Source: Candidatus Babeliales bacterium
GTDB lineage: Bacteria > Babelota > Babeliae > Babelales > RVW-14
DNA length: 64,000 nucleotides
Direction of reading: 5' to 3'
Assembly: GCA_041671765.1 (NCBI GenBank)
Contig: JBAZAX010000006.1
Coordinates: 2,231-66,230, forward strand
This document shows, one piece after another, positions 27,350 through 35,587 of this stretch (position 1 is the first letter of the stretch; every line of letters begins with the position of its first letter). Both the position numbers and the translations under genes were made by a program. The notes under the pieces were generated by a model. The model saw only the letters and a list, made by a program, of their open reading frames with translations. It had not been told where the DNA came from and did no database searches.

Positions 27350-30300
27350 TTATTTCATCTTTAAATCATGCCGGCCTGATAAATCAGCTTTCTTTGTTTG
27401 TTTAAAATCAAAATCAACTTCGCCCAAATGTTTTCCATTTCTGTTTAGAGCTTCAAATCTTCCATGTTGAGAGTCTACAGAATAAAACATACGAGCATTC
27501 TCGTCTTTATAAACATCTCGTTTATTAATTCTTGATAAGTCTCTGTCAAATTTTAAACCACTTGCTTGAGCAACTCTTTCAGCCTCAGTTTTTATCGCCG
27601 CAACTCTTTCACCCGGTGGCATTCTAGAAATTCTCTGTTCAAACTCAATTATTCTAGCAGATCTTCCTGATGCTTGAACAGGTTCAGTTGGAATTTGTCT
27701 GCCGCCATCACCTCTTCTAAAACTTCCCAAGTCTTCAGCAGCCGCTGCGCCTTCGCGCTCAAAATCACCTACAATTCTTGCCACGGCTCCATCAAAAGAG
27801 CCTTCTGTTATAACCAGCTCTGGATTTCTTTGAAGCGCTTCTGCAACCTTTCTCGCAAAATCTTGCCCTTTTTGCTGTGCAATCTTTCTAAATTTACCTA
27901 AATTTTCAGATATTGTTGAAGTTGGTGTAAAAATATTTTTGACTGCTGCTGGCAGGTTTGCAAAATTTGGAATACTGTGTGCAATTTCCTGCTCTCTAAT
28001 TACAAGTTCGCCACATTCTTTTATGGCTGTGGCTGCCAATTGAAGGTTATGTACTCTTGGCAATGTTGTTGCAAATGAAACTTCTAATGCAGGAGTTAAA
28101 TATCTACAAGAAAAAACATGACATAATCCATAAAAAATTAATTCTGTTCTTTCCGGACCTGTCATTGCTTCAAGCTTGTCAACCATCGGCTTAATAATTG
28201 GCTTTAATTCTCTGTTAAACGTTTCTATTCCTAACTCAGGGTTTTCTTCAATCATGCCACCAATTAAAGCCATTTTTGTGCTTAAAATTGTAAGCGCTTT
28301 GGTTCCTTCTTTCAATTTGGCCAAAGTTTCGGCAGGATGTGTAGCAATGTCTGTAAAGAATTGAAGATTTTCAAGCCCGAAACGCTGTAATCCTGCGGCT
28401 GCTCGTTGAGCATGATTTCCAAATATTTTTGCCGTATTTTGCCCGTATTTCACCATGTATCGTGCAGCAAACCTTAATGCATATGCACTTCCATCATCCC
28501 CATCGGTTTGCGCATAGAGATCTGCAAATTTATTTAACACACCCACAAATTCACACGTGCTTTTCAAGGTTGTATCACTACTGGCAATTCGAGCTAGAGC
28601 CTCATTGTAGCTGCTTGTTTTTTCTGTGAATTTTTTAAACTGACCTGGAGTTAAACCTCCACTTTGTGTTGTTGCCGCAGGTTCTTCCATGCCGACGACA
28701 GAGTGCGGAATTACAAAAGGTTCGTCTATCACCGTAGGACTAGAAGAAAAATCTCCTGTCCTTTTTATTTTTAATGGACGAGCTGTATCATCAAAAATAA
28801 TTGGAAAAGCTGATGTCCCAGCAGAACATGCTGCAGATTCCGGATCTTGTGGAACATCTCGCATTTCAACATCATGAGGCAATGTAGTCCGTAAATTTAA
28901 TAGTGGTCGGTCTAAATAAGGAGTGTATCTTGTTTCCTCTGGTCCTTTACCAAAAAAATGTGCACCGTCCATTGGAGGAGGGGACGCAAAAAGATATCTT
29001 AAAAGATGGTCTGTGCCGGCCGTTGCAACGGCCCTTGCTGCTCCAAAGCTAAAATCTCTGGCCGCTACTTTGGATCTTTCAGCAACGGCAGTTGTTGTCC
29101 TTGAAAAAAATTCCCGAACTCTTTCTCCTAATGTTGGTTGTTGTGGTACTGATTTTTCAACTGAGGGTTGAGGTGCTGCACTACTTATATCAGGTCGTAG
29201 ATCATGAGTTTCACCTGAGCGTCTTCCTAGGGATTCTTGCCGTAATCTCTCAAATCCTTCGGGATCATTAACAACAAAATCAGCAATATCCTCAGGTATA
29301 CCAGCACTAATTAAAGATTGCTTTTCTCTGGCCTTACTCTCTTGTTCCAATTGTGCTTGTTGTTGTCGTGGTCTTTGACAAATTCTTTCAAATTCTTCAG
29401 GTTCATATGCCGCCCAATGTGCAATATCTTCAGGAATTCCAGCACTAATTAATCGTTGCATATCTTCGGTTTTATCTTGAGCGCCATCTCCACTACCAGC
29501 AACATTTCCAAGTAACTCTTCAGCTCCCGGACTAGAAGTATAATATCTTATTTTCGTATCAGTTGATAACCTTATTAAATCTAAATCATTCACTTGATCA
29601 GGAAATTTAATTACCAATTTAGGGTCACCATTCTTTGACGAATCTACTGTAGCATCTACAACATAATCACGTTTCTCAGAAGATCCACCAACCCATGTCC
29701 TTGGATTAAGAACTTTAACAACTTTTTTAGTCCCATGAAGAACAGCTTTGGTTCTATAAAATCGTTTTTTTCCGTCTTTAGAAGTTCCTACACATTCAAA
29801 ATCACTTGATAAAATAAGCTCCTTCGACATTCCACGTTTATTTAAAAGATCCGAGAAACCCATATCTTTTGATATAAAATCTTTTATATTTTTTAAATCT
29901 TTTTCAACCTGTTTGGACAAATTTATTGCCAAATCTCTTTGAATGTAAAAAAGATATGTTTCACCATTTGTGCATAATTTGGGAAATTGATTCTGTTTTA
30001 AGGATACAATATACCCAGCAATTTCCTGCTCCCCTATTTTATGAAGTATTGCGGCAGGAACTGCTGCCACGCTATGCAATCGCCCAATAAATTCCTCAGC
30101 TAGTGCTTCCAATTCTGGCACAGTGATCCCTGGTTTTAATTCAAGACGAAGCCTCAACAAATTCTTTAAATCGGTTACTAATAATTCCGTATAATATTCT
30201 ACCGATTGTCCTCCTCCTAGACACGCCTGAGTTAATAAATGTGCATTACGAAAGGCCGAAGCACTGGCTATATTGGCTACAATAACTCCCTTTTGTTCTA

Positions 30301-30877
30301 TTTCACTCAATTTGTCAAATGCTGCGCGTTGTTTTGCCGCAATAATTTTTGCAACAGGAAATGGGTCTATAAGAGACCGCTCAAAAGTCTGGTTACCAGG
30401 ACTCTGTCTAATTTGTATCCAATAATTTTCACCACAGCTCTCAGATTCCACATCTCTGCCGCCTCCACCGCTAGATCCATTACCCCCACCGCCAGATGCA
30501 TCATGACTTCCAGAAGATCCCTCATGAAAACCATCTGAGGCAGCTCCAATTTTACTTGAATGGCGTAACACAAACAACATATATTCATCCTCTGGCTGTA
30601 TTAGATGAAACACCGCTGTCCCATCTTCGAGATTACCAGTTTGAACACAGTAATTTCCTTGTGCATAATTGTGTTTCGCACGTATTTTGTCCCATCTTAC
30701 TATAGATACGTCGTATTCGGTTTTTGTTATTCCGGGATATTTTGAAGCTTCGGTCCAAACCCTATCATACAAAGCCCTTCTATATTCAGGGATTTTATCC
30801 ATTCCATTTGAAAGACCAACCTGATTTACAACAAAAAGATAAATCAAAATATTTTTGAATTTCATGATAACCTCCAA
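27350..30877 (-). CDS. 1175-aa leader-bearing polymorphic-toxin-like protein with C-terminal colicin E3-type cytotoxic rRNase domain
   Basis: C-terminus ...NKRDVYKDENARMFYSVDSQHGRFEALNRNGKHLGEVDFDFKQTKKADLSGRHDLKMK aligns with colicin E3 ...GRKIYEWDSQHGELEGYRASDGQHLGSFDPKTGNQLKGPDPKRNIKKYL as I recall it. The catalytic D, H and E of DSQHGxxE are conserved; DSQHG is at nt 27461-27475. Leader KFKNILIYLFVVNQVGLSNG. Gly-rich tract GSSGSHDASGGGGNGSSGGGG. Confidence 0.8.
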   Translation of the reverse strand: MEVIMKFKNILIYLFVVNQVGLSNGMDKIPEYRRALYDRVWTEASKYPGITKTEYDVSIVRWDKIRAKHNYAQGNYCVQTGNLEDGTAVFHLIQPEDEYMLFVLRHSSKIGAASDGFHEGSSGSHDASGGGGNGSSGGGGRDVESESCGENYWIQIRQSPGNQTFERSLIDPFPVAKIIAAKQRAAFDKLSEIEQKGVIVANIASASAFRNAHLLTQACLGGGQSVEYYTELLVTDLKNLLRLRLELKPGITVPELEALAEEFIGRLHSVAAVPAAILHKIGEQEIAGYIVSLKQNQFPKLCTNGETYLFYIQRDLAINLSKQVEKDLKNIKDFISKDMGFSDLLNKRGMSKELILSSDFECVGTSKDGKKRFYRTKAVLHGTKKVVKVLNPRTWVGGSSEKRDYVVDATVDSSKNGDPKLVIKFPDQVNDLDLIRLSTDTKIRYYTSSPGAEELLGNVAGSGDGAQDKTEDMQRLISAGIPEDIAHWAAYEPEEFERICQRPRQQQAQLEQESKAREKQSLISAGIPEDIADFVVNDPEGFERLRQESLGRRSGETHDLRPDISSAAPQPSVEKSVPQQPTLGERVREFFSRTTTAVAERSKVAARDFSFGAARAVATAGTDHLLRYLFASPPPMDGAHFFGKGPEETRYTPYLDRPLLNLRTTLPHDVEMRDVPQDPESAACSAGTSAFPIIFDDTARPLKIKRTGDFSSSPTVIDEPFVIPHSVVGMEEPAATTQSGGLTPGQFKKFTEKTSSYNEALARIASSDTTLKSTCEFVGVLNKFADLYAQTDGDDGSAYALRFAARYMVKYGQNTAKIFGNHAQRAAAGLQRFGLENLQFFTDIATHPAETLAKLKEGTKALTILSTKMALIGGMIEENPELGIETFNRELKPIIKPMVDKLEAMTGPERTELIFYGLCHVFSCRYLTPALEVSFATTLPRVHNLQLAATAIKECGELVIREQEIAHSIPNFANLPAAVKNIFTPTSTISENLGKFRKIAQQKGQDFARKVAEALQRNPELVITEGSFDGAVARIVGDFEREGAAAAEDLGSFRRGDGGRQIPTEPVQASGRSARIIEFEQRISRMPPGERVAAIKTEAERVAQASGLKFDRDLSRINKRDVYKDENARMFYSVDSQHGRFEALNRNGKHLGEVDFDFKQTKKADLSGRHDLKMK

Positions 30878-30892
30878 ATTTTTTATTTTATA

Positions 30893-31879
30893 TCATTTAT
30901 CACATGCCCCAGCGGCTGCGCTAGATGCTACAGCTCCCGCTACAGGTGCTAATGGTGGGCAAAAAGATCCTACAAAGGCGAAAGCTCCTAAATAAGCTAA
31001 CGATGGCCATAGTTGTGCAAAAAATTTCTTACAGTAATGGGTATCAAATTTATCCCAGTATTCTTTGTCTGTAATCCATTCTCCATTAACCTTTGCCCCA
31101 TTAGCTTTTAATTTTTTGGCAAAAATTTCTAAGTCATTTGGATTAGTAAACGCAATATTGCTAAATAAACTTTTTGTTGCCCAAGAGACTTGGTCTAAAT
31201 TTGTGCAGTTATCAAAATTTAGGTTTAAAAAATAGCTGTTTTTAAAAATAGTTCCAAAAAAGTTGGCACTTGTTACTGAACTTTTTTCATTTCTGCCTAA
31301 AAGACAGCACCTTGAAAAACTTGTTTGATCAAATATGAGACCATTACCAATCTGAACCGTTTCGTATATTTTTACTAAATCGAGTTTTGCTGCCCTAAAA
31401 TTTATATTTTCTAGGGTACATCCAGAAAAATTTACAGTATCCCACTCGCTGCTATCCATATTTATATTGCAAAGCCTAGATACCATAAAATCCGTTTCTA
31501 AGAGCTTTGCATTAGGCATTAGTGAATTACTTATTTCCGAAGAATCAAAAATAACTTTTGCAAAAATACAAGATGTTAAATTGGAATTGTTTAAAATTTT
31601 TGAATTGTTGAATACCAAATCGCAGTATGTAACGGTTGATAAATTACATGAATCAAATGTAACATTTGTAAGCATTGAATTATGAAAAAATGCACCGGTT
31701 AAATTTACGTTTGCAAAAGTAACATCTGACAAATCCATATTTTCGATTTTTGCTTTTGACAAATCTGCATTTTCAAACTTTTTCCCTCCTGCAAGTAATT
31801 CTTTATATACCTGTTGGTCATATGCAAATAAGTTTGCGATATTTAAAATTAAAATAAGTGAAAAAATATATTTCTTCAT
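30893..31879 (-). CDS. Pentapeptide-repeat protein with signal peptide and C-terminal hydrophobic/Cys-rich tail
   Basis: A(D/N)LxX repeats: ADLSKAKIENMDLSDVTFANVNLTGAFFHNSMLTNVTFDSCNLS. Leader MKKYIFSLILILNIANLFA. Tail LGAFAFVGSFCPPLAPVAGAVASSAAAGACDK. Confidence 0.85.
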   Translation of the reverse strand: MKKYIFSLILILNIANLFAYDQQVYKELLAGGKKFENADLSKAKIENMDLSDVTFANVNLTGAFFHNSMLTNVTFDSCNLSTVTYCDLVFNNSKILNNSNLTSCIFAKVIFDSSEISNSLMPNAKLLETDFMVSRLCNINMDSSEWDTVNFSGCTLENINFRAAKLDLVKIYETVQIGNGLIFDQTSFSRCCLLGRNEKSSVTSANFFGTIFKNSYFLNLNFDNCTNLDQVSWATKSLFSNIAFTNPNDLEIFAKKLKANGAKVNGEWITDKEYWDKFDTHYCKKFFAQLWPSLAYLGAFAFVGSFCPPLAPVAGAVASSAAAGACDK

Positions 31880-31889
31880 GATAAATCTC

Positions 31890-33182
31890 CTAATTAGCTT
31901 TTTGTCTTTTTATCTCTGCAGCTATAAAATCCCTAATTTTTGCCTCTTGTTGCTGTTGTCTACCTGTTATACGTTCTTCAGCTCTTGATATGATGCTTGA
32001 TATTGTTCCTTGTGCGGCACTAGATGCTAACGTAATAAAAAAATCTTTCCAATCTTTTTCTGTTGTAGGCCAAAGTACTTTAAATTCGTCTGCAGGAACT
32101 TCATTTACGCAAGCACCCTTGTGTCTTAAATCATCCAAATCTCTTGGATTGCTGCTCACAATGTTATCAAATAGAGTTCCAACTGCTTTTCTAATTCTTC
32201 CAATATTCGTACAATTACCAAGCTTTACATGTTGTATAAGCACATCTTCTAATGATGCTCCATAAAAATCAGAATTTAGTAGAATGCTGTTGATATTTGA
32301 AATACCAAAATCTCTTTGCCAGTCCAAAAATTTAGAATAAGCAAAATTTAAAACTGTAACAGATGGGGAAATCTCACACTCAAATTTTAATAAGTCACCA
32401 TAGAACAAACCAGGATCTTTTCTTATTGCTGGAGAATATTGGGCAAGCTTACTCAGTACACCCATCTTGTTAAAAGAAATGCGAGCGGCCAAATCATCTC
32501 TCTCTGTGATACCATCGGTTCTTTCACCAGATTTTGGAGTTCTGGAAATGGTCTTCCCTCTAATACACCCAGTTTTTATTGTGGCATACCTGAAATTCAA
32601 ATTGGTACCTATGATCGTTGCATTACTTATATCAAGGCCTACGATGTAAGCCCTACTGAAATCTATGTTCATTAGCAAAGATTCGTTAAAATATAGTTCT
32701 TCAGCTTGTATGTGCACCATATTTACATGATCAATTACGGAGGTTGAGAATCTGACATTTTTTAACTTTGCATTAGCAAAAGAAACATTCTGAATTGCAA
32801 CATCTTTTAATATTAGCGAACTTATTGTTGCGTTTTCGAATTTTGTACCATCTGTGATAGCTATGTTATGAGCTGTTATATTTGTTATTGTTGAATTACT
32901 TAAATCCGTGTTCTTTAAAGTTGCGTTACATAATTGAACATTCGAAAGAATTGCATTATTTAACTTTGCATTTGTTAAATTTGCACCATTCAATTTTGTC
33001 CCAATTAATTTTGCGCCTACCAACGATGCTCCTGTTAAATCTGCCCCATTCAAATCAAAGTCGGTTAAATCGGCTCCATCCAACTGAGCATTAACTAAAT
33101 TTTTATCAGAAGATTGAGCTAGTAGTTTTGCACGTTGGAGATCTAATTCTTGTTGTTTTTTGATACCACAAATCTTTGCCAT
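31890..33182 (-). CDS. Pentapeptide-repeat protein (no leader)
   Basis: AQLDGADLTDFDLNGADLTGASLVGAKLIGTKLNGANLTNAKLNNAILSNVQLCNATLKNTDLSNSTI. The C-terminal non-repeat module is paralogous to that of 30893..31879. Confidence 0.85.
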   Translation of the reverse strand: MAKICGIKKQQELDLQRAKLLAQSSDKNLVNAQLDGADLTDFDLNGADLTGASLVGAKLIGTKLNGANLTNAKLNNAILSNVQLCNATLKNTDLSNSTITNITAHNIAITDGTKFENATISSLILKDVAIQNVSFANAKLKNVRFSTSVIDHVNMVHIQAEELYFNESLLMNIDFSRAYIVGLDISNATIIGTNLNFRYATIKTGCIRGKTISRTPKSGERTDGITERDDLAARISFNKMGVLSKLAQYSPAIRKDPGLFYGDLLKFECEISPSVTVLNFAYSKFLDWQRDFGISNINSILLNSDFYGASLEDVLIQHVKLGNCTNIGRIRKAVGTLFDNIVSSNPRDLDDLRHKGACVNEVPADEFKVLWPTTEKDWKDFFITLASSAAQGTISSIISRAEERITGRQQQQEAKIRDFIAAEIKRQKAN

Positions 33183-33255
33183 CTGGTCAATTATTTTTTG
33201 CTGCGCTTCTTTATATTTTTGGCTTTGCTGTATTGGAAATAACCCTACATGGCAC

Positions 33256-35370
33256 TCAGATTCTTTTAATGCGTAAAATAAAAGGACAACCTAAAATTCT
33301 TTGCACCATAGCTGAAGTACCAGCTTGATGACAACGCTGACATGCATAACTTTTATCAAAAAATGGTGCGAAGTGTGCCTCTAAAATTTCTTGAACACTT
33401 TTTAACTGGTTAGGACAAATAGTCGTCTTGGGTTGCACTACCCCACCTTTATCTGAAGTATATTCGCAGCCTAATATATCTTTTCTTTTTAAACACTGAG
33501 TAATTATATTAATACTCAGATTAAGAGGTTGTTTATCTTGGGCATGTAACTGACCAAGTAACAAATTTAAAAATTCATCTGCAACTTGAAAAGCCACTTC
33601 ATGATTTTTACTTTGTTCGATCAATATTTTTGCTTGTTCTACAAGATTTTGATCAGTCACTGGCTCACTCGAGGTTTTTAATTTTTTTATAAGATTAATA
33701 AGACTGAAGACGAAAAAATTATCTTCATAATTATTTTCACTTGAAACCAATTGTGTCTTAAAGTTTTTAAGATTAGAAAGACACTGAACGACTGAATTCA
33801 AATATGGAACTATACTAACTTGCATAAGCCCAACATTTTGACGTTTTTCTAATGCCTCTGCTTGAATTCTTAACTCTTCTTGACGTTTCTTTATCGCCTC
33901 TTCTCGTAGTCTAGCCTCTTCCTGATTTCTCAGGGCCTCTTCTTTTTGGCTGCTATGAGTAATCCAGTCATAAAATTTTCTAAAAAAACTTTTATATTCT
34001 TGTTCCTGTAGTTGCTGAATAGAAGGCAAAGTACCTGCCATACTTGCTGCAGCCTCAGGGTCCTGTAAATCGACGACCTCTTTTCTTTTTTGGCTTGAGG
34101 GTTCCGACAGGTCTGCATCATCATCATTTGGATTAAAACCTCTGGCTTCAGGTCTAGCTCCAGATTGTTGTGCTGCCGGTTGGGCAGGTGCTTGCGCCGT
34201 TGGGCGCTTTTTTTGATAAAACAGAATGTAGGGAGTAAAATTTTGAAAACTTAACGGAAAACTACCTGCTTTAACAATACCTTGTATAACTTGCTCATTT
34301 ATTTCGCTGACGGATGAATCATTGTATACATACCATTTTCCATTTTCAAAATCTTTAACGATAGAGATATAGTGGTTGCAACCGTGACAAACAAAACCCG
34401 CTAATTCATACAAAAGATTTACACCTTCTCGGTTTTTGAGTTCATCTGCTGCATAAGGTTTTAAGTCGAGTTCCATAGTGAATGAGACAGGATTGATTAT
34501 CTTGCGACCATCTGCAGTAAATCTTTTTAACGACATGATTAAAATATCGTGATCTTCTAAAATTTCTGAAGATTTAAAAGATGTGTTAACTTTGTTACAG
34601 CTACCACATTGATAGCCGTTTGCAAGTGATGGATGAAAGAAGTCTGTCAATAACTCCTGTAATTCAGTAAGTGTGTTATGTCTCTCAATTTTATCAAGCG
34701 GCAATGCAATTGTTTCATACGTTTCATGTTTTTGGGACTCGAACGGACATACACTTATACCATCAGTCGCTAAGCATTTAACTTTCTGATTAAGCTTTAA
34801 CTCTAAAGAAATTTTGTCCGGTTCATGAATTTGGCTTAATAGTAAAGTTAAAAATTCATCAGCATCCTGAATAGATTTTCCTTTATTGGCAGGAATATCC
34901 TCAATTAACTTTTTTGCCCGCTCAGTAAAGTCTTTATCTTTTACCTCTGATGCACTGGTTGTTCTTAAATTTTCAAATAATTTTATTAAATTTAAAACAA
35001 GAATTTTTTTAGCACGATTTTCTGGCGTATCGTCAATACGTTCTTGTTGATAAAATGCTTTGTTTCCCAATAATGTTGATCTGAAAACTTTAAGATTTGA
35101 AAGACACTGAACAACGGCATTTATATAACAAATGTTACGGCCGCCATTTTTTAAGCCCACATTCCTATGACTTGCAACAGTTCTTGTTGAACTTACTGAA
35201 TCAAATGTCCTTTTTTGGCCCTCTGGAGTTCGAGAAGCTTGAGTACTTTCAGTTTCGGGTTGATCATCCTCTGCATCTCGCATTGCGTAAAGATTAACTT
35301 GTAAAAGTGCCTGAAACAGCACAAACAGCATCGAAAGAACATGAAAATTCTTCTTCACGATAACCCCCAT
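33256..35370 (-). CDS. Tandem USP protein: one intact USP/UCH (C19-like) deubiquitinase domain plus a degenerate, truncated second copy
   Basis: Domain 1 has Cys box GLKNGGRNICYINAVVQCLSNL (Cys81, nt 35128-35130) and His box CHGCNHYISIVKDFENGKWYVYNDSSV. Domain 2 has NVGLMQVSIVPYLNSVVQCLSNL, where Pro replaces the catalytic Cys, and ends at ILRIKRI before any His box. Leader VLSMLFVLFQALLQVNLYA followed by Met30. Confidence 0.8.
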   Translation of the reverse strand: MGVIVKKNFHVLSMLFVLFQALLQVNLYAMRDAEDDQPETESTQASRTPEGQKRTFDSVSSTRTVASHRNVGLKNGGRNICYINAVVQCLSNLKVFRSTLLGNKAFYQQERIDDTPENRAKKILVLNLIKLFENLRTTSASEVKDKDFTERAKKLIEDIPANKGKSIQDADEFLTLLLSQIHEPDKISLELKLNQKVKCLATDGISVCPFESQKHETYETIALPLDKIERHNTLTELQELLTDFFHPSLANGYQCGSCNKVNTSFKSSEILEDHDILIMSLKRFTADGRKIINPVSFTMELDLKPYAADELKNREGVNLLYELAGFVCHGCNHYISIVKDFENGKWYVYNDSSVSEINEQVIQGIVKAGSFPLSFQNFTPYILFYQKKRPTAQAPAQPAAQQSGARPEARGFNPNDDDADLSEPSSQKRKEVVDLQDPEAAASMAGTLPSIQQLQEQEYKSFFRKFYDWITHSSQKEEALRNQEEARLREEAIKKRQEELRIQAEALEKRQNVGLMQVSIVPYLNSVVQCLSNLKNFKTQLVSSENNYEDNFFVFSLINLIKKLKTSSEPVTDQNLVEQAKILIEQSKNHEVAFQVADEFLNLLLGQLHAQDKQPLNLSINIITQCLKRKDILGCEYTSDKGGVVQPKTTICPNQLKSVQEILEAHFAPFFDKSYACQRCHQAGTSAMVQRILGCPFILRIKRI

Positions 35371-35398
35371 TATTAAATAATTGTTTTGTAAAAAAAAT

Positions 35399-35444
35399 AA
35401 ATTACAACTATTTGTAATTTAATATATTAAAAGCGCTTAGTCAA
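35399..35444 (-). promoter_or_regulatory. Candidate sigma70 promoter with overlapping 9-bp inverted repeat (operator-like) for the USP/pentapeptide/toxin operon
   Basis: Minus strand: TTGACT (35439-35444), a 17-nt spacer, then TAAATT (35416-35421). The inverted repeat aaattacaa-ctat-ttgtaattt (35399-35420) overlaps the -10. It lies about 30-75 nt upstream of ATG 35370. Confidence 0.35.
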
Positions 35445-35450
35445 AGGCCT

Positions 35451-35459
35451 GGGGGGGGG
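35451..35459. repeat. Homopolymeric G9 (C9 on the minus strand) tract immediately upstream of the candidate -35
   Basis: ggcctGGGGGGGGGtataaag read directly from the sequence. This is the longest G/C run I noticed in the window. Confidence 0.9.
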
Positions 35460-35587
35460 TATAAAGTTTTCATGCTGAAACAAATTTTAATGCGTCGACG
35501 GGAAAGATCGGCATGGCTGAAATAATTGTCTCAAAAAACTGTAATTCGCGTAAATCAATGCCTCAAAAACGGTAAAGCTCGGACGGA

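Follow-up and report, generated by a model that had tools for sequence, protein, structure and literature searches.

What kind of gene would carry one complete ubiquitin-specific protease (USP) domain followed by half of a dead one? The question is raised by an open reading frame (ORF) of 704 codons in a stretch of 64,000 nt from an uncultured Candidatus Babeliales bacterium (Dependentiae, TM6; contig JBAZAX010000006.1 of the assembly GCA_041671765.1), referred to here as the window, which belongs to a genome of 1.45 Mb with ~35% G+C. The comparison with intact orthologs makes it very probable that this ORF represents the 5′ part of a gene for an effector of three modules, exported through Sec and targeting the host, and that this gene was split by a deletion of 314 nt.

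Intact orthologs and the 314-nt deletion

Two full-length relatives keep the gene in one piece. The first one (P0004) is a single ORF of 1196 aa from a metagenome-assembled genome of the same genus (MFD01231.bin.2.11, CAVXAT010000002.1, locus L003/L005/L017), with 52% identity over 99% of the window protein, and the second one (P0201), also a single ORF, of 1250 aa, was obtained in an exhaustive search. Both follow the same order: a signal peptide, an active first USP domain (USP1), a linker, a complete second USP domain (USP2) and pentapeptide repeats that include a hydrophobic segment, with a conserved module at the C-terminus. The ancestral gene would have shown this same order, with a helix after the linker, a USP2 already dead and the pentapeptide repeats folded as a β-helix. 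The full second domain that, according to the initial annotation, might exist in orthologs is indeed found in both proteins. In P0004 it covers positions 2-254 of the 254 of the Pfam UCH profile (E 9.8e-29), and its structural model (pLDDT 89.4, pTM 0.88) resembles USP47, USP2, USP12, USP46 and USP7 with Foldseek TM values of 0.75-0.79. The USP2 of either protein has a Pro at the column of the catalytic Cys and a Gln at that of the His. A third relative, which preserves the N-terminal half of the dead USP2 up to the end of its contig, shows again the change from Cys to Pro.

The window shares with these orthologs the module order, the leader and the Cys to Pro replacement, as well as the downstream genes: a second pentapeptide gene and then a large toxin-like gene. 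The orthologs consist of one ORF each and have an entire USP2 and the hydrophobic segment, while in the gene of the window 314 nt are missing, the frame is shifted and that segment is gone. As compared to the gene of the 1196-aa ortholog (blastn and manual alignment), the missing length is of the form 3n+2, and the deleted stretch codes for the KRF strand, the palm and the His box. The deletion extends from just 5′ of the KRF strand to the last strand of USP2 (PYILFY), and took the palm/His-box half and shifted the frame, so that the ORF ends eight codons further on and the pentapeptide module is left in a separate ORF. The opposite polarity, with the 314 nt inserted in the orthologs and the short form being ancestral, is unlikely, since these nucleotides code for a canonical part of the fold, namely the palm with the His box. 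The parts of the locus are the following:

33256-35370, minus strand: very probable 5′ fragment of the ancestral USP1/dead-USP2/pentapeptide-repeat effector gene, 704 aa
35284-35358, minus strand: Sec-type signal-peptide-like N-terminus (VKKNFHVLSMLFVLFQALLQVNLYA), read from the sequence
34186-35163, minus strand: USP1, a USP domain predicted to be catalytically competent from Pfam UCH, catalytic columns and structure matches
33961-34185, minus strand: linker, Pro/Ala/Gln-rich and then acidic
33838-33960, minus strand: charged helical (coiled-coil-like) segment, from its tandem duplication and an AlphaFold2 (AF2) helix
33283-33837, minus strand: USP2N, the N-terminal half (thumb and zinc-ribbon fingers) of the dead USP domain
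33282-33283, minus strand: deletion junction, between ...GGTTGTCCT and TTTATTTTACGC..., where the exact break may lie 1-2 nt either way inside a T run
33256-33282, minus strand: eight out-of-frame codons (FILRIKRI) and a TGA stop
33183-33284, minus strand: +1-frame relic of the last USP2 strand and of the linker from USP2 to the pentapeptide repeats (LLFYALKESECHVGLFPIQQSQKYKEAQQKIIDQ)
31890-33182, minus strand: pentapeptide-repeat ORF, the detached C-terminal module, 430 aa, from Pfam Pentapeptide

The end of the ORF had been taken as the equivalent of a USP motif LIMSLKRF, which turns out to be a misreading. FILRIKRI and its stop are the out-of-frame version of the last USP2 strand (…ILFYALKESECH), that is, a +1-shifted reading of the DNA for the C-terminal USP2 motif LLFYALKESECH, and the likeness to LIMSLKRF is coincidental. 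The right flank of the junction matches the ...ILFYELKESECH of the ortholog, with 32 identical positions out of 39 nt, but in the +1 frame; this frame reads LLFYALKESECHVGLFPIQQSQKYKEAQQKIIDQ-MAKICG... past the junction and stays open for 34 codons into the pentapeptide ORF. The missing half of USP2 was not found relocated anywhere in the 93%-complete genome, where its sole match is the C-terminal half of USP1 itself.

An assembly error, which had been considered as a potential cause of the truncation, is discarded because six more assemblies show exactly this junction: GCA_041666385.1 (NCBI), ERZ28564009 and ERZ27249449 (ENA), Logan SRR18595301 and SRR6484324, and JGI Ga0209417_1035682. The split is therefore real, and constitutes a reproducible frame-disrupting lesion relative to the intact orthologs. 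All six assemblies show 0-1 mismatches to the window over 2.8-6.5 kb, and one clone of a Dependentiae bacterium is widespread across the sampled datasets. The broader region 28890-35600 of the window is 99.98-100% identical, over up to 6.5 kb, to the contigs of these six assemblies (L036-L041).

The two USP copies

A USP domain with both catalytic boxes had been proposed at residues ~70-395, and the Pfam UCH profile (PF00443, cut-off of 23.9 bits) confirms it, matching residues 71-385 along its entire length (positions 1-254 of 254; 165.8 bits, E 1.8e-48). When aligned with eukaryotic USPs, the catalytic columns are occupied by Cys81 (NICYINA; 35128-35130), His333 (34372-34374) with the gatekeeper Tyr334, and Asp351 (34318-34320), and the domain matches the solved structures of USP47, USP36, USP2, USP15 and USP21 with E values down to 4e-15. 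Judged by its full-length profile, its Cys, its His with an aromatic gatekeeper and its Asp, copy 1 is a member of the USP/UBP family (PF00443, MEROPS C19) predicted to be active, and it is intact in the window strain.

Translation probably starts four codons into the ORF, at GTG 35358, as gene callers have it (700 aa, P0002), with a GGGGG motif 5 nt upstream. The leader shows, by eye, a KK n-region, a hydrophobic core of ~17 residues and an LYA/M site, features that are conserved in orthologs, three out of three having a counterpart of this signal-peptide-like N-terminus. The GC-rich linker that had been noted between the copies is confirmed as well, with 49% G+C at 34111-34185 as compared to 35% for the entire ORF. 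It leads to the charged segment, which the AF2 model depicts as one long helix (model residues 3-40) of high pLDDT. Within this segment, a 42-nt tandem duplication (33838-33879 and 33880-33921, 74% identical) encodes the 14-residue units EEARLREEAIKKRQ and EELRIQAEALEKRQ.

The second copy starts at residue 512, and its homology to copy 1 ends at ...RILGCP, residue 696. The initial annotation was right in regarding it as a USP homolog, as a pairwise protein alignment gives 35% identity between the two halves over 204 columns (E 9e-27) and the second half alone reaches 35.1 bits with Pfam UCH, although covering only positions 2-151 of 254. The residual DNA similarity between the copies could also be traced, to 39 nt with 85% identity (33766-33804 against 35089-35127). 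Aligned in the same way, copy 2 shows Pro522 (SIVPYLNS) in place of the catalytic Cys, the codon at 33805-33807 being CCA, as had been reported. With this Pro, and with a His box that is deleted in the window and carries Gln in both full-length orthologs, copy 2 is not predicted to be an enzyme, and, given its partial profile coverage, in the window it does not form a complete thumb-fingers-palm domain either. What remains are the thumb helices and all four zinc-ribbon Cys positions, all of them 5′ of the break. The AF2 model of the remnant (pLDDT 85, pTM 0.64) shows confident thumb helices and finger strands, followed by ~20 poorly defined final residues (pLDDT 53-73), and its match to solved USP domains is partial, with target-normalised TM-scores of 0.32-0.48.

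History and constraint of the dead copy

Maximum likelihood trees of USP domains (IQ-TREE, LG+C20) place the USP1 domains of the window, L004, G027 and P0201 in one clade (100/99) and the dead copies in another (100/100), both of them nested in a 100/99 group with P0203, a protein with a single USP and pentapeptide repeats. This pattern indicates one internal USP duplication before the four lineages split, with the dead state kept since then, and USP2 would have been maintained as a pseudo-enzyme. The change from Cys to Pro is common to the four lineages, and that from His to Gln to the two with a complete USP2. As for the tip branches, the dead copies do not exceed the active ones in length. 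Ratios of nonsynonymous to synonymous substitution rates (dN/dS), calculated for a USP2N segment of residues 527-680/695 that starts 15 residues inside the domain, are 0.23 for USP2N and 0.26 for USP1 between the window and L004, and 0.18 and 0.30, respectively, between the window and G027. To the early origin of the dead copy these estimates add a purifying selection that equals or exceeds that of the active copy. A combination of catalytic loss and purifying selection is what defines a conserved pseudo-deubiquitinase, and the ancestral module would be one of them.

On the window's own branch, polarised changes in USP1 amount to 21 nonsynonymous and 9 synonymous, as compared to 12 and 16 in the sister lineage (Fisher p = 0.06), which is suggestive at most of the active domain having come under relaxed or altered selection since the split. 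In the case of USP2N, 3 nonsynonymous and 4 synonymous changes (3N:4S) are too few to judge.

The detached pentapeptide ORF and its neighbour

The C-terminal pentapeptide-repeat domain of the same ancestral gene, which had not been linked to the USP ORF in the initial annotation, forms the ORF 31890-33182. With its tandem A(D/N)LXX repeats, it belongs to the Pfam Pentapeptide family (PF00805; 88 bits for a cut-off of 20.2, E 2.6e-25). It corresponds to residues 726-1194 of the 1196-aa ortholog with 65-69% identity, and its first codon is a Met that was internal in the ancestral protein. No signal peptide was found on this ORF, nor any Shine-Dalgarno (SD)-like motif 5′ of its ATG, a motif that is present in 58% of the long ORFs against a background of 10%; the adjacent pentapeptide gene (PPR2) has AGGAGA. 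Compared with the ortholog, the dN/dS of the ORF is 0.26.

The middle of this ORF (~32313-32495, residues ~230-290) is hypervariable. It is charged and non-hydrophobic, with a length similar to that in the orthologs and no frameshift, at the place where both intact orthologs carry a bilobed hydrophobic, membrane-like segment. The maximum hydropathy (19-aa Kyte-Doolittle window) is 0.77 as compared to 1.86-1.89 in both orthologs, and charged residues are 15 as compared to 7-8. A frameshift as the origin of this divergent region was ruled out, as no other frame is ortholog-like and the GxFYG anchor is in frame.

PPR2 itself (30893-31879, minus strand) is variable among the assemblies: at position 31205 of the window, TGC is replaced by TGA at Cys225 in GCA_041666385.1 (L036) and ERZ27249449 (L038), which leaves a protein of 224 aa instead of 328. 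A nonsense polymorphism is hence segregating within the same operon and clone.

Active/dead USP pairs in the family

The PF00443 domain occurs in 28 of the 35 genomes of the bacterial family (1-12 matches each) and in none of the 14 control genomes. Among ~40 sampled domains, no USP that stands alone in its ORF and has both boxes complete has lost Cys or His, and dead domains appear only in ORFs with several USPs. They fall into three groups:

Group 1: the window gene and its orthologs, with Cys to Pro and His to Gln
Group 2: L018 (G003:C16, 847 aa) and L019 (G002:C34, 853 aa), from another genus, with Cys to Arg and His to Glu in the second domain
Group 3: L027 (G022:C17, 3751 aa), with five USP domains, two of them dead, with Cys to Ser and His to Arg or Val

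In L018 and L019, the first domain is active (NTCFLN, GGGHY) and the second one dead (NTRFLN, GGGEY), and the dN of the tandem is 0.155 for the dead copy and 0.284 for the active one. The genome of L027 has 12 PF00443 matches. Every dead copy clusters with the active domain(s) found in the same protein, and the active/dead pairing thus arose at least three times independently, since the branches that join them are starred in the tree. On the other hand, both copies of one tandem protein of 793 aa are active by motif. Fusions of a single USP to pentapeptide repeats were also found (P0203, P0216 and a 902-aa ORF in another genus), so that this looks like the older architecture, into which the duplication would have been inserted, in a part of the tree with a three-way branching at 82/63.

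Proposed explanation and its rivals

Cultured Dependentiae are intracellular parasites of protists, and a large share of their proteins is exported through Sec (PMC6561590), a biology under which the effector described here would be Sec-exported and reach the host. Its USP1 would remove ubiquitin from targets of the host or of the bacterial surface, as TssM and SnUSP1-3 do (PMC10643670). The complete dead USP2 would most likely be dedicated to a non-catalytic binding of ubiquitin or substrate, or to the regulation of USP1, whereas a protease activity of this domain is very unlikely, as nucleophile and general base are both replaced. Finally, the pentapeptide helix and its hydrophobic segment would target the enzyme. 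In the window strain, an active USP1 with a stub of thumb and fingers would still be exported, the contribution of the dead domain being lost or impaired. The pentapeptide targeting module would no longer be delivered with the enzyme, because its ORF has neither leader nor ribosome-binding motif, and the activity of USP1 alone is likely to remain.

Several observations weigh against this explanation. The seven assemblies, including that of the window, are essentially one clone, and hence a single evolutionary observation. Dropping one T from the T4 run of the junction would fuse the frames, and an in-frame deletion with a later slip, or a rare ribosomal frameshifting, may be an alternative. 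The pentapeptide ORF is free of stops and frameshifts over 430 codons and the USP2N remnant is without sign of relaxed constraint on the window branch, which leaves two options, a deletion of very recent date or a continued use of both pieces. Moreover, the contig of the only closer relative (P0003/L004, 83% identity) stops 10 codons short of the junction, and P0003 is therefore silent on it, as its last 7 residues come from adapter. The final ~21 nt of this contig (ENA ERZ724100 NODE_17204) are Illumina adapter (AGATCGGAAGAGCACACGTC), translated as the C-terminus EIGRAHV. A homolog search with the pentapeptide ORF for closer relatives gave the same protein and distant pentapeptide proteins only, and a metagenome scan for them just one more copy of the same clone.

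The least improbable alternative is a functional gene fission, by which the deletion would have left two operative genes, one for a shortened secreted deubiquitinase with a stub of thumb and fingers that would still bind ubiquitin or a partner, and one for a separately translated pentapeptide protein that would have acquired a new role, for instance inside the bacterium. The two open frames (704 and 430 codons) would fit with it, and so would the absence of a replacement excess in USP2N (3N:4S), the dN/dS of 0.26 of the pentapeptide ORF, and a remnant modelled at pLDDT 85 whose four zinc-ribbon Cys positions precede the break. However, those low dN/dS values were mostly built up in the period preceding the deletion, the modelled remnant ends in ~20 residues of low confidence (pLDDT 53-73), and the pentapeptide ORF has no SD-like motif, leader or hydrophobic segment, while the PPR2 nonsense mutation in two assemblies of the same clone suggests an eroding locus. 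Taken together, the missing SD and leader, the lost hydrophobic segment and the PPR2 polymorphism speak, short of proof, for a locus in the course of losing its C-terminal functions. A fission of this kind is unlikely.

Split effector or not, the initial annotation had left two possibilities for the second copy, either a ubiquitin-binding pseudo-enzyme module or a decaying duplicate. The first one stands for the ancestral gene, considering the complete dead USP2 of two orthologs, the purifying selection and the 100/100 clade, with the binding of ubiquitin as a prediction. The second one does not hold as it was stated, since there is no gradual erosion, but a truncation did occur in the window copy through the single frameshifting deletion of 314 nt. 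A functionless duplicate, first inactivated and then eroded, would account for the replaced nucleophile and the absence of half of the domain in the window. Against it, two orthologs retain the dead copy in full and the same substitutions recur in all lineages, the dN/dS of the dead copy (0.18-0.23) is not above that of the active one, and the independent tandem of the other genus shows a lower dN in its dead domain. A neutral copy would not remain open and conserved over a dS of ~0.9 or more, and this possibility is highly improbable. Lastly, a homopolymer error at CCTTTTATTTTA, or a programmed +1 frameshift yielding a fused protein with an in-frame shortened USP2, could be invoked from the 34 open codons of the +1 frame and the single T that separates the frames, but is hardly credible with an identical junction in seven assemblies from NCBI, ENA, Logan and JGI, a T4 run that is not error-prone in short-read data, and, by eye, the absence of any known signal for a +1 shift, be it an SD-like element upstream or a stop context prone to shifting.

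Known systems and significance

Bacterial USP-type deubiquitinases are few, namely TssM of Burkholderia and SnUSP1-3 of Simkania negevensis, which are effectors with a single active USP domain (PMC10643670). Like USP1 here, they are eukaryote-like USPs (C19) with canonical Cys, His and aromatic gatekeeper, in large proteins with hydrophobic regions from intracellular bacteria that presumably act on host ubiquitin. They differ from the present system in having one active USP, whereas the ancestral gene described here, from the phylum Dependentiae and known from its sequence, adds a second dead USP and a pentapeptide module, and is split in the window. A tandem of active and dead USPs fused to pentapeptide repeats is thus a novel architecture among the bacterial USP effectors, represented in the window by a broken allele. 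In the case of the pentapeptide repeats, Salmonella PipB2 is a secreted effector of this type, delivered by a type III system, with no deubiquitinase domain. The likeness to PipB2, which is named in PMC6313403, lies in the repeat type: a pentapeptide β-helix in a protein delivered to the host, plausibly for targeting or protein binding.

Dead partners of deubiquitinases are familiar from the MPN- subunits that are paired with MPN+ enzymes, where the dead copy, as here, adjoins its active paralog. A more far-reaching proposal is that dead USPs, having originated at least three times by separate internal duplications, are recurrent functional partners in cis, analogous to the MPN+/MPN- pairs, which would bind ubiquitin or determine the choice of substrate or linkage, and that the stub and the detached pentapeptide protein of the window still work, as an adaptive fission instead of a decay. 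Taken as a whole, this is improbable. Among USPs, eukaryotic pseudo-enzymes such as USP39/Sad1 and USP52/PAN2 have been described (PMC10919355), some of which were later reported as active (PMC10919355, PMC12037411); the inactivity of the dead USP2 would follow from the loss of both Cys and His. As with the eukaryotic pseudo-deubiquitinases, the protease fold is conserved without catalytic residues, and roles in scaffolding, binding or regulation are presumed, but those are separate proteins or domains in complexes, and not a tandem in cis that arose by internal duplication in a bacterial effector. A full-text literature search for tandem, two-domain or inactive USPs gave no bacterial pseudo-USP and no tandem deubiquitinase USP, the query "tandem USP domains" leading to universal stress proteins.

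New to this work are the allele split by deletion, its spurious KRF ending, a further full-length ortholog and the at least three independent active/dead tandems. Whereas the window allele on its own is an ordinary gene disruption in one clone, the repeated pairing of an active and a dead domain, with the dead copy conserved each time, would be the signature of a functional pseudo-enzyme. For deubiquitinase biochemists, a natural set of constructs is provided by proteins in which the dead domain is complete, halved or absent. For genome annotation, the split explains a leaderless pentapeptide ORF after a seemingly truncated USP gene, whose apparent KRF-box ending is a frameshift product of evolution.

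Additional observations

A promoter and terminator scan of the locus gave counts at chance level, with no terminator between the USP and the pentapeptide ORFs, and Rfam gave zero matches within the window. Among the genomes of the family, the one that encodes P0020 and P0115 (G021) is labelled in NCBI as "Epsilonproteobacteria bacterium" and belongs to the same GTDB family as the window genome. Its TypA protein is 73% identical to that of the window genome. This falls within the 70-77% that separate the latter from its best named matches, which are bacteria of candidate division TM6, Candidatus Dependentiae and Candidatus Babeliales; the label is probably a taxonomic mislabel.

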